Below are positions 2,680 to 26,439 of a stretch of 64,000 nt of DNA, in pieces. The DNA comes from an uncultured Clostridia bacterium. Its GTDB lineage: Bacteria; Bacillota; Clostridia; TANB77; CAG-508. Position 1 is the stretch's first letter, and each line of letters opens with the position of its first letter. The notes under the pieces are model-generated. The model was not told where the DNA came from and made no database searches. It was given only the letters and a program-made list of their open reading frames with translations. Position numbers and translations under genes: made by a program. The DNA lies in contig CAKOTF010000009.1 in the NCBI GenBank assembly GCA_934120045.1, forward strand, positions 2,509 to 66,508. The letters are read 5' to 3'.

Positions 2680-2709
2680 TTGACTTTTTGCGTTTAAATG
2701 GATTATAAT
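2680..2709 (+). promoter_or_regulatory. Sigma-A-type promoter TTGACT-N18-TATAAT driving sRNA-like locus copy A
   Basis: -35 at 2680-2685 and -10 at 2704-2709. The same geometry with different flanking sequence is found at copy B. Confidence 0.6.
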
Positions 2710-2715
2710 AATTAT

Positions 2716-2886
2716 AGGAAATGGCAAATCCACAAACGTGTTTTTTGCCGAATAGAGTAAAACTCACATCTACTCGTCAAAGTACAGATGTGAGTTGTTT
2801 TTTATTTATGTAGTTGCTTATCAACCCAGTTCTTATACAGAACTGCTGTCAATGAAACCACATCTGCTAATTCTCATTTCTTATGA
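2716..2886 (+). ncRNA. Unclassified structured sRNA-like locus, copy A (paralog of 25443-25583 on the opposite strand)
   Basis: About 85-90% identity by eye to the reverse complement of copy B outside the hairpin loop. It has its own promoter and an internal hairpin+U tract. No ORF is conserved between the copies. Confidence 0.5.
2761..2806. terminator. Bidirectional hairpin terminator inside copy A
   Basis: 11-bp stem AACTCACATCT/AGATGTGAGTT with a 14-nt loop, followed by GTTTTTTATTT. Confidence 0.6.
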
Positions 2887-2891
2887 CATAC

Positions 2892-2920
2892 ATTCTACAA
2901 TACTATTTCAGATTTGTCCA
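2892..2920 (-). promoter_or_regulatory. Convergent (antisense) promoter TGGACA-N17-TAGAAT firing into copy A
   Basis: Hexamers read on the minus strand. The predicted TSS coincides with the right edge of the conserved block. Confidence 0.4.
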
Positions 2921-2986: not shown

Positions 2987-3296
2987 ATGAAAACTATATT
3001 AGATGATGACTTATCATATTTAATATATTCCATAGTAGAAGAAATCCCTGTTCGGATATGTTGCAACTTATGGTCAAATTGCCAGATTAATTGGAAAGCC
3101 TAAAAATTCAAGATTAGTTGGCAAGGCACTAAAAATGGCTTTTCGTTATGGTGATTTTCCTTGCCACAGAGTTGTAAACCATCAAGGCAGAATTACCCCT
3201 GGATGGCCTGAACAAGTAGATTTACTTAAAGAAGAAGGTGTTACCTTTAAAAATGAATTTTGCGTTGATTTAAAAAAACATCAATGGAATATATAA
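2987..3296 (+). pseudogene. MGMT-family (Atl/YbaZ-like, PCHRV) DNA-binding protein gene disrupted by a frameshift
   Basis: Frame 1 gives MKTILDDDLSYLIYSIVEEIP then a stop at 3101. The +1 frame continues YVATYGQIARLIGKPKNSRLVGKALK...FPCHRVVNHQGRI to 3296. The shift is near 3046-3052. Confidence 0.75.
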
Positions 3297-3338
3297 AAGC
3301 AAACCAGAGAAATTTTAAATTTTCTGATTTGCTTTTTT
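3297..3338 (+). terminator. Hairpin terminator after the MGMT-like pseudogene
   Basis: AAGCAAACCAGAGAAA/TTTTCTGATTTGCTT stem followed by a T run. Confidence 0.5.
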
Positions 3339-3392
3339 ATTTTAAAATATTATCCGCTTCCTCTTGATCTACGTAACTATCAAGTTGCACAT

Positions 3393-3740
3393 CTATTTTG
3401 TATAATTTGCTTGTACTTTTTCTGGTAGCTCATTATATTGTACTTCTTCCCATGAATGAACTCCAAATGTTTTTACTTCCAATTTTAGAAAAGCATCTTC
3501 TTTAAGTTCTCTACTTGTTTTAAACTTCAATTCTCTTTTCTTTCCATTTTCATTATAACAATCTAAAGTATACTCATATTTCATATTATCTGAGCTTGAT
3601 ACTTTTTCTATTTTGGTATTATCAATTTGTGTATAATAAATTGATTTATAATTTTCAAAAAAATACAATCCAGTTACACATATTACAATTGCCACAATCA
3701 CTGCAATAACCATTGGTAATTTTTCTTTTAAATCTTCCAT
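3393..3740 (-). CDS. YxeA-family (DUF1093) small exported protein
   Basis: N-terminal TM segment, then YYTQIDN...YEYTLDCYNENGKKRELKF...GVHSWEEV, typical of YxeA. It lies downstream of a Bce-type ABC pair as in B. subtilis yxdLM-yxeA. Confidence 0.8.
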   Translation of the reverse strand: MEDLKEKLPMVIAVIVAIVICVTGLYFFENYKSIYYTQIDNTKIEKVSSSDNMKYEYTLDCYNENGKKRELKFKTSRELKEDAFLKLEVKTFGVHSWEEVQYNELPEKVQANYTK

Positions 3741-6744: not shown

Positions 6745-7761
6745 TTACTTTAATTCAATATAGCTATCTTTTGGAAACACTAACTTGACTTCTGTACCTT
6801 CATTTTGCACTGAATTTAGTTCTATTCCTATTCCTAATTTATTGCATAACTTTTTACACAAATATAATCCTATTCCTGTTGATTTCTTATTTGATAATCT
6901 TCCATTTGTTCCTGTAAATCCTTTTTCAAAAACTCTTGTAATTTCTCCTTGTTTTATTCCTATTCCGTTGTCTTTAATATATAAAATCACATTCTCTTTT
7001 CCTTGATTTGCATATATTTCAATTACAGAGTTTTCTTTTTTTCTGTATTTGATACTATTTTGTATAATTTGATTTAATATAAATACTATCCATTTGTTGT
7101 CTGTATTAACTTCTATCTCTAAGTCATGAATATCAATAGAAATCTTTTCTTGTATTAAACTACTTTTGTTCTTTTTAATACTTTCATTTACAATTTCTTT
7201 TAAAACCACTTTTCTTATATAATAATCTTTTTCTACAGTATTACTTCTTGCATAAAATAAAGCTTGTTCAATATAATTTTCTACTTTGTCTAGTTCTTCA
7301 TCTATACTTTTGGTTATAGCATTTTTATTGTTTTCTATTACCATTTTACTAGTTGCTATTGGTATTTTTATTTCATGTATCCATAATTCTATATATTCTT
7401 TATAATCTTCTGTCATATATTTGTATTTGTTTACATTTTCTAACATTGATTTATCAATTTGTTCTAATGAGTTTTTAAATATCTGTCCCTCTAAAAAATT
7501 AGGAGTTTTTATAATTTCTGTAATTAAATATTTTTCGTCTAATTCTTCTAAAATTTTTAATAAATTATCATAGAATTTTTTTCTTTTAAAATATTCTATA
7601 ATAATTGAAATCATATATAATCCAATTATTATAAGTGGGATATATATTTTTATGAACATTCCTACATTATATGCCATTAAAAATATTTCTATTGTAATAA
7701 GTCCAAACAATAGTAATAAAATAGTGCTGGCTTTCTCTCTTAAAAATAATTTAAAATCCAT
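6745..7761 (-). CDS. BceS-type intramembrane-sensing histidine kinase
   Basis: Two N-terminal TM segments with almost no external loop. H-box WIHEIKIPIA and G-boxes DNGIGI, GTGIGLYL. Confidence 0.9.
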   Translation of the reverse strand: MDFKLFLREKASTILLLLFGLITIEIFLMAYNVGMFIKIYIPLIIIGLYMISIIIEYFKRKKFYDNLLKILEELDEKYLITEIIKTPNFLEGQIFKNSLEQIDKSMLENVNKYKYMTEDYKEYIELWIHEIKIPIATSKMVIENNKNAITKSIDEELDKVENYIEQALFYARSNTVEKDYYIRKVVLKEIVNESIKKNKSSLIQEKISIDIHDLEIEVNTDNKWIVFILNQIIQNSIKYRKKENSVIEIYANQGKENVILYIKDNGIGIKQGEITRVFEKGFTGTNGRLSNKKSTGIGLYLCKKLCNKLGIGIELNSVQNEGTEVKLVFPKDSYIELK

Positions 7762-11217: not shown

Positions 11218-11281
11218 ATTCATCCCTCCATCAATTACTATCTTTCATTTTATATCATAAAAGCAGATAATTATCAACCAA

Positions 11282-12052
11282 TTACCTGCTTTTAATATTA
11301 TTTTCCTTACCCTCTTTAAAACCATTCCTACTCCATAACCATAGTGGAGTATGTATATCAATAGGGTTATACTTAGTCCCTTTAAATAATTCATTCCATC
11401 TCTCAACAACTATCAGCTGTACATCACTTCTATTTAATTCTTCATCAGTTATTAGTCCTAATTTATGTGTTGCCTGAATAACATGTGTATCAGGTGCAAC
11501 TGTTAACTGATTAATGTTTTTGTATTTTCTATCTGTATATTGATATATAACATATAGCCAATAGTTACATATTTTTGTTCCAGATAAATATGGAAATTTC
11601 TTTTTATTTTCCTTTTGAATAAAGTTCTTTATCTTATTAACATCATTATCTAATGAATCAAATAACTTTCTAATATCTCCATCATATAATTCTACAAACG
11701 TTTTACATAGAGATAACCATATTTCAGTTTGCTTTTGTTTTTGTAATGCTATTTTATATTTTACAAGTGCATATTGTACATCTTCAAAAGTCTTTTCTAA
11801 ACATATTTTAGGATTAAATACAAAGTTAGTTTCCTCATCATTATATGTATTTAATGCACTTTCCCATAATTTATATGAATTTCTTTGATAGTTCAATGCC
11901 ATAGGTAAAGTAAAATAAAGATAATTTTCCAGCGAAGATTTCTCTAAATGTGGATTTGCATCTTCTGGCATGACTTCGCCACCAAGGCTCCCTTTCTTCC
12001 ACATATTATATAAAATATCTACTTTTCGTAATATTTCCTCTTTATTATACAT
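11282..12052 (-). CDS. HhH-GPD-superfamily (EndoIII-like fold) protein, putative DNA glycosylase-like
   Basis: PYLSGTKICNYWLYVI (HhH-like) followed by VAPDTHVIQATHKLGLI (compare VDTHV.R...LGL of EndoIII). Start re-called. Confidence 0.45.
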   Translation of the reverse strand: MYNKEEILRKVDILYNMWKKGSLGGEVMPEDANPHLEKSSLENYLYFTLPMALNYQRNSYKLWESALNTYNDEETNFVFNPKICLEKTFEDVQYALVKYKIALQKQKQTEIWLSLCKTFVELYDGDIRKLFDSLDNDVNKIKNFIQKENKKKFPYLSGTKICNYWLYVIYQYTDRKYKNINQLTVAPDTHVIQATHKLGLITDEELNRSDVQLIVVERWNELFKGTKYNPIDIHTPLWLWSRNGFKEGKENNIKSR

Positions 12053-12531: not shown

Positions 12532-12698
12532 TCTTTCCTCCTAGTTAATTTCTTCTTATTATATATCATAAAAACAACTACTTATCAACACTATTTTTCT
12601 TAAAACTCATGTCATTGACAATAATACAACATTATTATATAATTGATTTTATGCAAAATTTTCAATAAATAATTTCAAATTTGAAAGGGGACAAAATT

Positions 12699-21272: not shown

Positions 21273-21343
21273 AAAATCACATCCTTTTATTGTTTCTTTA
21301 TATCACAAAACCAGATAATTATCAACTAATTATCTGGTTTGTA

Positions 21344-25300: not shown

Positions 25301-25408
25301 GTATCATACTATATAGCAAAAAGAAGCAAATATTACCTAAATTAAGGTTGTATTTGCTTCTTTTACATTTGTCAAACGATATTTTTACGAAAATTTGTTC
25401 TTTTTGTA

Positions 25409-25437
25409 TTGATTTGTTCTTATTTGTATGCTATACT
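25409..25437 (+). promoter_or_regulatory. Convergent (antisense) promoter TTGATT-N17-TATACT (with TG extension) firing into copy B
   Basis: Read directly. The predicted TSS coincides with the edge of the conserved block. Confidence 0.45.
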
Positions 25438-25442
25438 AGTTC

Positions 25443-25583
25443 ACATAGGAAATGATAATAAGCAGATGTGGTTGATAAGTAACTACATAAATAAAAGAAA
25501 GCTCACATCTGTAAATTTGGCGATTTAGATGTGAGTTTTTATATCTATTCGGCAAAACCATGTTTGTGGATTTGTCATTTTCT
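25443..25583 (-). ncRNA. Unclassified structured sRNA-like locus, copy B (inverted paralog of 2716-2886)
   Basis: The reverse complement aligns with copy A from the -10 element to ...CATTTCCTATG. It lacks the roughly 34-nt extra hairpin of copy A. Confidence 0.5.
25498..25540. terminator. Bidirectional hairpin terminator inside copy B
   Basis: The core stem CTCACATCT/AGATGTGAG is shared with copy A, the loop differs, and T-rich tracts lie on both sides. Confidence 0.6.
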
Positions 25584-25589
25584 ATATTT

Positions 25590-25618
25590 ATTATACTGAG
25601 TTTTTATTTTTTTGTCAA
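25590..25618 (-). promoter_or_regulatory. Consensus sigma-A promoter TTGACA-N17-TATAAT driving copy B
   Basis: -35 at 25613-25618 and -10 at 25590-25595, read on the minus strand. Confidence 0.65.
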
Positions 25619-25767
25619 TCCAAATTTTAATTATTTACAACCTCATAATAAAAATAGCAAGCCAAATATATACCATAAATGTGGTGTTGTTTGACTTGCT
25701 ATTTTTTTAAGTTATACCAAATGAGTCTACACACTCATCTGACAATGTGCACTTTTTAGAATAGTTT

Positions 25768-26439
25768 TCATTCTTCATCATCTATAGAATCTTCTATAGC
25801 ATCTATTATACAAGTTAAGAAAATAATATCTTTCATTGAAATATCCGAATCTTGTTTTTTGACGATTTTATAAGAATCTACCATATCAAGCTGTTCGCTA
25901 ATGTTAAACAAAATTTCACCATTTGAAGCATTATATACATTAAATTCATAATATAATGACATAATTTCTTCTTGAGTGTATCCAAGTTCGTTCTTGTTTG
26001 AATCATAAATATGGAAATTATACTTACTCAAAGAAAAGAAATCTGTAAAATATTCTTCTCCTATATATCCAGTTGTATTTCCATCTTGATCCATCAAATT
26101 AGCTAACCTATTTAGTCTTACTCCCCAACGTTTTATTTGCTTTTCTTTAGCAATTTCGTTTCCATTTGCATCTGTAAGAGTGAATATATCACCTGTAATA
26201 TTTACATATTCACCAGATACACTTCCAATCTCCTTTCCATCTACATACACATCGTATGTTTTCGTTAAAGATACAAATCTTTCTTTTACATTTACTGTGG
26301 TTGCTTCTTCAATTAAAGAAGAATAATCTTCTGGTAAAGAACTTTCATCATCTTTTGTATCTTTTATTTCAGAAGAGCACCCAACAAGTAATAATATGAC
26401 AACGATCGCTATTATGCTAAAAAAATACCGTTTTTTCAT
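25768..26439 (-). CDS. Lipoprotein, LURP-one-related/tubby-C-like fold (tentative)
   Basis: Signal peptide with lipobox LLVGC. The body resembles LURP-one-related proteins, a weak by-eye call. Confidence 0.6.
   Translation of the reverse strand: MKKRYFFSIIAIVVILLLVGCSSEIKDTKDDESSLPEDYSSLIEEATTVNVKERFVSLTKTYDVYVDGKEIGSVSGEYVNITGDIFTLTDANGNEIAKEKQIKRWGVRLNRLANLMDQDGNTTGYIGEEYFTDFFSLSKYNFHIYDSNKNELGYTQEEIMSLYYEFNVYNASNGEILFNISEQLDMVDSYKIVKKQDSDISMKDIIFLTCIIDAIEDSIDDEE

Follow-up and report, generated by a model that had tools for sequence, protein, structure and literature searches.

Organization of the locus

We analysed a 64,000-nucleotide stretch of DNA from an uncultured Clostridia bacterium (hereafter, the window), in which a short intergenic locus at 25409-25618 contains two convergent promoters and, between them, a hairpin that can serve as a terminator on either strand. 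The original prediction had read this locus (copy B) and a similar block at 2680-2920 (copy A) as small RNA (sRNA) genes. The evidence described below suggests that copy B is, quite probably, the toxin-deleted remnant of a type I toxin-antitoxin module from a previously undescribed family of gut Clostridia. Throughout, RNA I denotes the former toxin mRNA, read from the plus strand at copy B, and RNA II the putative antitoxin RNA, read from the minus strand. The coordinates of the features are collected in Table 1.

Both of the promoters that had been proposed are present. The minus-strand promoter, that of RNA II, matches the consensus at every position, and its TATAAT and TTGAC are kept in nearly all relatives. 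The plus-strand promoter carries a TG extension. Sites as good as this one (9/12) are about equally frequent in shuffles of the AT-rich region, so that alone it proves nothing; it is meaningful because it is conserved across the family, as seen in the consensus of 88 unique elements.

RNA II of copy B is composed of a 5′ domain (AUAGAAAAUGACAAAUCCACAAACAUGGUUUUGCC), a small hairpin designated P1, in which 25566-25569 pairs with 25558-25561, a linker of variable sequence, the terminator hairpin and a U run. It was matched with 102.8 bits (E = 1e-16) by a covariance model based on the relatives, and exactly two strong matches were found in the 64 kb, copy B and copy A. The fold z-score of copy B RNA II is -3.3. 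That the minus-strand product is a small RNA, as originally claimed, is very probable.

The arms of the terminator stem (25502-25510/25527-25535) are flanked by an A run and a T run, and a hairpin followed by a U run is therefore read from either strand. The arm sequence CTCACATCT is present four times in the window, as two inverted pairs, against an expected 0.63, and none of 100 shuffles reached four. Copies A and B have this core stem in common and differ in their loops (14 and 16 nt, respectively), as had been noticed; they are inverted with respect to each other and align with ~90% identity over the block. The hairpins of both copies fold well on either strand, with z-scores from -3.3 to -5.5.

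On either side of copy B, the segments 25321-25366 and 25650-25705 form hairpins as long, near-perfect inverted repeats, which agrees with the earlier description of a stand-alone unit that is not the 5′ leader of a gene. Beyond the second of these, a 223-amino acid (aa) open reading frame (ORF) on the minus strand (25768-26439) bears the lipoprotein signal LVGC. A riboswitch or attenuator leader was also considered and rejected: the downstream sequence is the antisense of a toxin ORF in the relatives, and in the window it comprises terminators and a convergent gene.

A multi-copy element encoding a 39-aa peptide

An exact-pattern scan with the core of the block yielded 30 loci, all in gut-derived metagenome-assembled genomes (MAGs) labelled 'uncultured Clostridia/Clostridium sp.' In most of these loci, the block runs on for ~200 nt past the hairpin, and the whole module measures ~400 bp. 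On the strand opposite to RNA II, the extra stretch encodes a conserved 39-aa peptide with the consensus MFMVKVILFFIISLMLSLTLNVALTAVLYKNWVDKQLHK. The ORF is present in ~22 of the 30 loci, and upstream of it lie GGAGAGGTGGTG and the same TTGATT...TATACT promoter as on the plus strand of the window. Copy B is thus not the free-standing sRNA locus of the original prediction, but a deletion derivative of this multi-copy element. The objection that the prediction had raised against itself, namely that the block might be a fragment of a larger repeated element with its remainder elsewhere in the genome, holds in substance; the remainder, however, has been lost from the strain and does not lie elsewhere.

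With the peptide as seed, 326 loci were retrieved from species-representative genomes, several of which carry at least two. The relatives of the peptide fall into 62 protein clusters, all of them described merely as 'hypothetical protein' and none with a Pfam domain, and a full-text literature search with the peptide string found no paper. The consensus of the 88 unique elements is more than 90% conserved from promoter to promoter. Among these elements, the variation at codon positions 1/2/3 is 78/18/217, synonymous changes make up 52% as compared to 21% expected at random, and the replacements in the toxin are conservative (V/I, L/F, S/A and T/A). Judged by this substitution pattern, the 39-aa ORF is a real coding sequence.

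Residues 4-28 of the peptide are strongly hydrophobic, with a mean hydropathy of 2.26, as against -1.8 for the tail, YKNWVDKQLHK, which is polar and basic. AlphaFold predicted one continuous helix spanning residues 2-37, with a predicted local distance difference test score of 95. The relatives show the generic traits of a type I toxin: fewer than 60 residues, a hydrophobic sequence, a helix predicted to cross the membrane, and a C-terminus that is polar or charged.

Housekeeping genes flank the intact loci, the contexts of which vary. Numerous contigs from MAGs and metagenomes (L004, L012, L019, L023, L025, L114-L116 and others) end in or beside the element; since a multi-copy repeat breaks short-read assemblies, the true number of copies in a genome is probably higher than that counted. 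Over their first ~40 nt, RNA I and RNA II are alike in the same sense (AUAGGAAAUGA...GUGGUUUUGCC), which amounts in the DNA to a ~41-nt imperfect inverted repeat lying inside the promoters (25445-25473 on the plus strand and 25585-25552 on the minus strand of the window). Multiple copies in varied contexts, frequent contig breaks at the element and this inverted repeat could together suggest the fragment of a mobile element, such as a miniature inverted-repeat transposable element or the end of an insertion sequence, with the ~41-nt repeats as its termini. This explanation is very improbable, because the repeats are transcribed sequence inside conserved promoters rather than element ends, no transposase is associated with the element, and a blastn comparison of the intact element with phage and plasmid collections gave no match.

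Deletion of the putative toxin coding region in copy B

Three loci, L026 (in the MAG UBA10678), L111 and L114, match the window with ~98% identity through four neighbouring genes, which encode a P-type ATPase, an adenine glycosylase, a Ham1-like protein and a 70-aa ORF; the match on the other side takes in RNA II with its promoter. At the exact site of the clean gap in the window, all three loci carry the intact toxin 5′ untranslated region (UTR) and ORF. The deletion in copy B took the anti-Shine-Dalgarno (anti-SD) sequence, the SD, the AUG and toxin codons 1-33, and its breakpoints have the short repeat TGTGGTT / TG(T/G)GTT in common. This deletion, and the orthology of copy B to the intact loci, are essentially certain. 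Given that same-species relatives retain the toxin at ~98% identity, the deletion is a within-species polymorphism.

Alignments to L026, L111 and L114 revealed that the RNA I remnant of copy B lacks a ribosome-binding site and a start codon, as well as the part coding for the transmembrane segment. Read against the consensus ORF, its surviving codons once specified D K Q L H K and the stop, and the CAA is now a TAA. The remnant has a fold z-score of -4.4. Although it lies on the strand opposite to RNA II, it gave a weak covariance-model match of 29.7 bits, which is explained by the paralogy between the 5′ ends of the two RNAs. From its sequence, copy B presumably still makes RNA II, plus a ~100-nt non-coding stump from the toxin promoter.

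These orthologues bear directly on the possibility that the locus is a self-contained convergent sRNA gene pair, unrelated to any protein-coding gene and with trans targets of its own reached through UUUUGCCGAAUAG, which had been put forward as a conserved single-stranded stretch. Such a pair would accord with a window locus that has both promoters and the terminator but no ORF. It is hardly credible, since same-species orthologues bear the toxin ORF in the gap, which in effect refutes it, and since what the plus strand would yield is a shortened 5′ UTR joined to a 3′ end. Moreover, only the UUUUGCC part of UUUUGCCGAAUAG is conserved in the wider family, whereas its GAAUAG half falls in the variable linker. 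The toxin-less form might still be taken as the ancestral one, but the three different deletion end points described next argue against this.

Copy A is the same kind of relic, from an older independent deletion. A different segment of ~106 nt is missing (junction at ~2853-2856) and the last 16 codons are left; the deletion is judged to be older because L001 and L019 have the same one. The terminator stem of copy A is formed by 2763-2771/2786-2794. A third deletion, of ~159 nt between TTATCA repeats, was found in L028, the orthologue of copy B in another species. Toxin loss is thus recurrent, having occurred in copy A, copy B and L028 by deletions with different end points.

Both window copies are also altered in P1. 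Its 3′ arm, GUGG, has become AUGG in copy B by a G-to-A change, and GUGU in copy A, together with one extra U and one non-canonical pair. The arm is unchanged in all of the ~156 toxin-bearing relatives examined and in 24 toxin-defective loci. Mutation of this arm in 2 of ~27 toxin-less lineages, as compared to 0/156 intact ones (p = 0.02), is a weak sign of relaxed constraint on the relic RNA II sequences.

Two further differences among the near-identical loci were observed. The toxin ORF of L026 (about 7241-7372) encodes ...LYKNCVDKQLHK and contains a W32C replacement, at a tryptophan that is otherwise invariant in a 17-sequence alignment including L026; the peptide may be a toxin of reduced activity and represent one stage of the same decay. 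As compared to the 98%-identical L111, ~1.3 kb with two MatE-fragment genes is missing from the window, between the lipoprotein gene and the promoter of RNA II, and the BLAST segments overlap by 13 nt at 25628-25640. The lipoprotein terminator lies close to the RNA II promoter because of this second deletion.

Table 1. Positions of the features of copies A and B within the window
Feature	Position	Strand	Description
RNA II promoter, copy B	25618-25590	-	TTGACA (25618-25613)-N17-TATAAT (25595-25590); consensus 12/12
RNA I (former toxin mRNA) promoter, copy B	25409-25437	+	TTGATT-N17-TGcTATACT, extended -10; consensus 9/12
RNA II (putative antitoxin), copy B	25486-25585	-	~100 nt; predicted start near 25582-25585
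Bidirectional intrinsic terminator, copy B	25502-25535	both	stem CTCACATCT/AGATGTGAG, 16-nt loop
Truncated RNA I remnant, copy B	25445-25549	+	~27 nt of toxin 5′ UTR fused to last codons and terminator
Last six toxin codons and stop, copy B remnant	25474-25494	+	GAT AAG TAA CTA CAT AAA TAA
Deletion junction, copy B	25467-25473		~132-138 nt missing; alignment flanks ~97-98% identical; BLAST segments overlap at 25467-25473
RNA II promoter, copy A	2680-2709	+	TTGACT-N18-TATAAT; consensus 11/12
RNA II, copy A	2714-2810	+	covariance-model match 89.8 bits; fold z-score -5.5
Last 16 toxin codons and stop, copy A remnant	2802-2852	-	LTAVLYKNWVDKQLHK; from alignment
RNA I 5′ UTR and promoter remnant, copy A	2857-2920	-	TGGACA-N17-TAGAAT at 2920-2892

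Unequal loss of the two partners

The fate of the two partners was compared in two sets of loci. In the first, found through the toxin and consisting of the best-scoring 80 of the 326 loci, 76 of which had enough flanking sequence, a complete RNA II stands beside the intact toxin in 75/76. The second set came from a toxin-blind scan anchored on the first 20 nt of RNA II, in which three chance matches were set aside. Of its 95 RNA II loci, 71 have an intact ORF, 17 have a truncated or disrupted one and 7 have none. The asymmetry (75/76 vs 71/95) gave p = 3.9e-6 in Fisher's exact test, a value computed on related sequences that are not independent events. Loss of the toxin with retention of the RNA, and almost never the reverse, is what one would expect of a peptide that does harm in the absence of the RNA.

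The single toxin-bearing locus of the 76 without a recognisable RNA II 5′ domain is L101 (1618-1790), in which the terminator is present and is followed by unrelated sequence. It is possibly an exception to the rule that the toxin needs the RNA, or its toxin may be silent for another reason.

The unequal loss also bears on whether the peptide is toxic at all. The module could encode a benign small membrane protein regulated by antisense, with RNA II merely tuning its expression; in line with this, the peptide has no homology to known toxins, and the loci lie among housekeeping genes and not in phages or plasmids. We nevertheless consider this improbable. In addition to the asymmetry, the coding part alone was deleted repeatedly and independently, the element is multi-copy in different genomic contexts, the ribosome-binding site is predicted to be sequestered, and the antisense promoter is stronger than that of the mRNA. 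All of these features are typical of type I loci (listed in PMC6563280).

RNA II and its relation to RNA I

When transcription starts were taken ~7 nt past each -10 box, the predicted lengths were ~240 nt for RNA I and ~100 nt for RNA II, with both transcripts converging on one hairpin. Their 3′ 57-58 nt are perfectly complementary, a stretch that includes the terminator along with the stop and the last 2-3 codons of the toxin. As in type I systems generally, the predicted RNA II is a small antisense RNA complementary to the toxin mRNA, with a promoter of its own, which here is near-consensus.

The 74 unique versions of RNA II are composed of a near-invariant 5′ domain (AUAGGAAAUGACAAAUCCACAAACGUGGUUUUGCC), ~99% conserved, followed by the variable linker and by the terminator hairpin with its U run. 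For 39 diverse members, RNAalifold gave an invariant hairpin of 4 bp, CCAC/GUGG, together with a terminator stem of 8 bp. In six of the eight pairs of that stem, pairing is kept across the family through changes on both sides, which bears out the earlier proposal that the stem is structurally constrained. The alternative stems found in the family, TTCACATCT/AGATGTGAA and AAACCATT/AATGGTTT, probably represent two or three events.

Neither the window nor eight related loci contained an Rfam match at the gathering score. When the locus and an intact orthologue were scanned by E-value, only far sub-threshold chance matches were returned, the best overlapping ones being Spy779816 (26 bits, threshold 67) and CopA (18 bits, threshold 60).

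In RNA I, the SD and start region reads GGAGAGGUGGUGAUG. RNAalifold predicted that the upstream UUGCCACC, the anti-SD, pairs with GGUGGUGA, which contains the 3′ part of the SD and the A of the AUG.

Two other sets of candidates were discarded. Hand-drawn pairings of CCACAAAC with GUUUAUGG and of AAAUCCAC with GUGGUUUU did not rise above dinucleotide shuffles. The short peptides MTNPQTWFC, in RNA II, and MIISRCGF, in RNA I, were rejected because 1-nt indels shift their frames and the AGGA-to-AUG spacing is too short.

By eye, the linker and terminator-loop types differ between copies in 8/9 genomes with two listed copies (for example L043/L057, L037/L074, L059/L071, L088/L091 and L038/L104), and copies A and B differ likewise. 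These types may be specificity classes against cross-talk, although the indication is weak, since there are several types and random pairs would also tend to differ.

Comparison with known type I systems

In the par locus of pAD1 and its relatives, the promoters converge, one terminator works in both directions and the SD is sequestered (PMC7472228); the T1TAdb paper counts this layout among the Gram-positive families whose antisense RNA is located 3′ of the mRNA without extending across the ORF (PMC8594479). The Fst/RNA I-RNA II system of par(pAD1) in Enterococcus faecalis, with its chromosomal relatives (Fst/Ldr), resembles the present family in several respects. The promoters are convergent and share a bidirectional terminator; the overlap is essentially limited to the terminator rather than spanning the ORF, and reaches here the stop and the last 2-3 codons; and the SD region is predicted to be sequestered by upstream mRNA sequence. 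Furthermore, the peptide is small, has a single (predicted) transmembrane helix and contains a Trp as well as a tail that is polar or charged, and the hosts are low-GC Gram-positive bacteria.

On the other hand, the peptide has no sequence similarity to Fst/Ldr (no Pfam or NCBIfam match at E ≤ 10), and its hydrophobic domain is without proline. RNA II is ~100 nt long here, as compared to ~40 nt in pAD1 (PMC7472228), and it matches no Rfam family. In place of DRa/DRb-type complementarity to the translation start, which does not exceed chance, the 5′ ends of the two RNAs are alike in the same sense. By analogy, the family would work like par/Fst-RNA II, without being a member of Fst/Ldr by sequence. 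The family is previously undescribed; the layout itself is already known from type I systems.

A similar 3′-overlap arrangement, with convergent genes and an antisense RNA complementary to the 3′ end of the toxin mRNA, is found in TxpA/RatA, BsrG/SR4 and BsrE/SR5 of Bacillus subtilis, and in CD2517.1-RCd8, CD0956.2-RCd10 and others of Clostridioides difficile (PMC6563280, PMC8594479). The toxins of these two species are hydrophobic peptides of 28-60 aa with charged C-termini, and are not conserved between families (PMC6563280, PMC8594479). Their complementarity is long and extends into the ORF (PMC6563280), in contrast to the ~58 nt observed here. Most of those systems lie in prophages or next to CRISPR arrays, whereas the present loci lie between housekeeping genes. 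The outcome of pairing is likely to be the same as in those systems, namely mRNA decay and/or a block of translation.

The state of copies A and B recalls that of the hok/sok copies of E. coli K-12, which have been inactivated by insertions, point mutations or rearrangements. In both cases, inactivation has struck the toxin half, the antisense half and the regulatory signals still being in place, and multi-copy chromosomal paralogues show varied decay. Unlike the hok/sok relics, the present family has lost the coding part cleanly, by deletion between short repeats, at three or more independent loci, and about a quarter of the sampled loci are affected.

Functional interpretation

The anatomy of the module, its coding signature and the asymmetry of loss make it probable that the intact family is a toxin-antitoxin system in nature. 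From these sequences we infer that the RNAs are transcribed, that the peptide is toxic and that RNA II acts as its antitoxin. In an intact module, a moderate promoter (TTGATT-N17-TGnTATACT) would drive RNA I, which encodes the 39-aa single-helix peptide, and the near-consensus promoter opposite to it would drive RNA II, with the two transcripts converging on the shared terminator. By analogy with par/Fst-RNA II and with other 3′-overlapping type I systems, RNA II would pair with RNA I, probably starting from the terminator loops, and the pairing would block toxin synthesis or promote decay of the mRNA.

The window strain has lost ~138 nt between short repeats, and with them the ribosome-binding site, the start codon and codons 1-33; the promoters, RNA II and the terminator of copy B survive. 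As a result of this deletion, the locus can make just two short convergent non-coding RNAs. Copy B is most likely a functionless relic on its way to decay.

Several observations weigh against this interpretation. Comparison of the peptide with Pfam, NCBIfam, PHROGs and PADLOC gave nothing at E ≤ 10 or only matches at E > 0.3, and the PXXXG motif of Fst is absent from the peptide. The nucleotide conservation of the element is so high that sequence counts overstate the number of independent events, and the set of loci ascertained through the toxin favours well-preserved ones. The helix that would sequester the SD is invariant in 64 sequences, and is therefore without covariation support. Duplex energies of the RNA II 5′ domain with the RNA I 5′ UTR and start, or with the ORF, were no better than those of dinucleotide shuffles, which matched or beat them in 318/500, 194/500 and 95/500 cases, and in 110/300 for the longest contiguous pairing; a second contact of the par type (DRa/DRb) is accordingly not supported. 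Finally, all 24 toxin-defective RNA II loci keep the 5′ domain and the promoter, and the retained orphan copies of RNA II could be under selection rather than simply decaying.

The last point leads to the suggestion that orphan RNA II copies are kept as trans antitoxins against other or incoming toxin mRNAs ('anti-addiction'), or have been recruited as regulatory sRNAs. That ~25% of RNA II loci are without an intact toxin, with the TATAAT retained in all 24 of them, speaks for such a role, as do the perfect consensus promoter and the intact terminator of copy B. The deletion in copy A is common to three genomes, yet its RNA II still matches the covariance model, and genomes commonly carry two or more copies. 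We consider this suggestion rather unlikely, however, given that both window copies are changed in the otherwise invariant P1 stem. The deletion in copy B is polymorphic within the species, at 98% identity, and is too recent for decay to show. In addition, complementarity exceeds chance only in the terminator overlap; cross-protection between copies is doubtful, because the terminator loop and the linker differ between paralogues. No intact copy that RNA II might act on was seen in the 64-kb window.

A further role might be sought in the RNA II 5′ domain itself, which is a same-sense paralogue of the toxin mRNA 5′ end (AUAGGAAAUGAUAAUAAGCAGAUGUGGUUUUGCCACC). The domain might act as a mimic or decoy, with RNA II competing against the mRNA for a factor that binds the 5′ module, such as the ribosome, an RNase or an RNA-binding protein. 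We regard this as a long shot. If true, RNA II would counteract the toxin in a way that has not been described in type I systems, the toxin-less copies would keep a trans role on all paralogous toxin mRNAs, and the occurrence of about a quarter of the loci as orphan RNA II genes with intact promoters could be explained. The same-sense 5′ module of both RNAs is the one feature of the family that could lead to a new mechanism.

With copies A and B read as relics, what looked like two sRNA loci can be annotated as decayed toxin-antitoxin modules, and should not be mistaken for new regulators. The relatives would constitute an unannotated type I toxin-antitoxin-like family with more than 300 loci, often in several copies per genome. 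Type I systems are difficult to detect through homology, and outside C. difficile little charting of them has been done in Clostridia (PMC6563280). The family offers a natural series, from intact loci through missense (W32C in L026) and truncated toxins to fully deleted ones, and the loss of a toxin with retention of its RNA might be used as a genomic signature of toxicity in unculturable organisms.

Other features of the window

Near copy A, ~320 nt of the window (3295-3612) are missing from the otherwise 98%-identical L019; this stretch overlaps the 3′ part of a 115-aa ORF on the minus strand (3393-3740). A hairpin repeat of ~44 nt, TTTATATCAyAAAAsCAGATAATTATCAACyAATTAyCTGsTTT, occurs at 11249-11292, 12558-12589 and 21297-21340, and looks like a repeated terminator-like intergenic element. 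Its third copy (21297-21340) lies just past the stop codon of the P-type ATPase gene.

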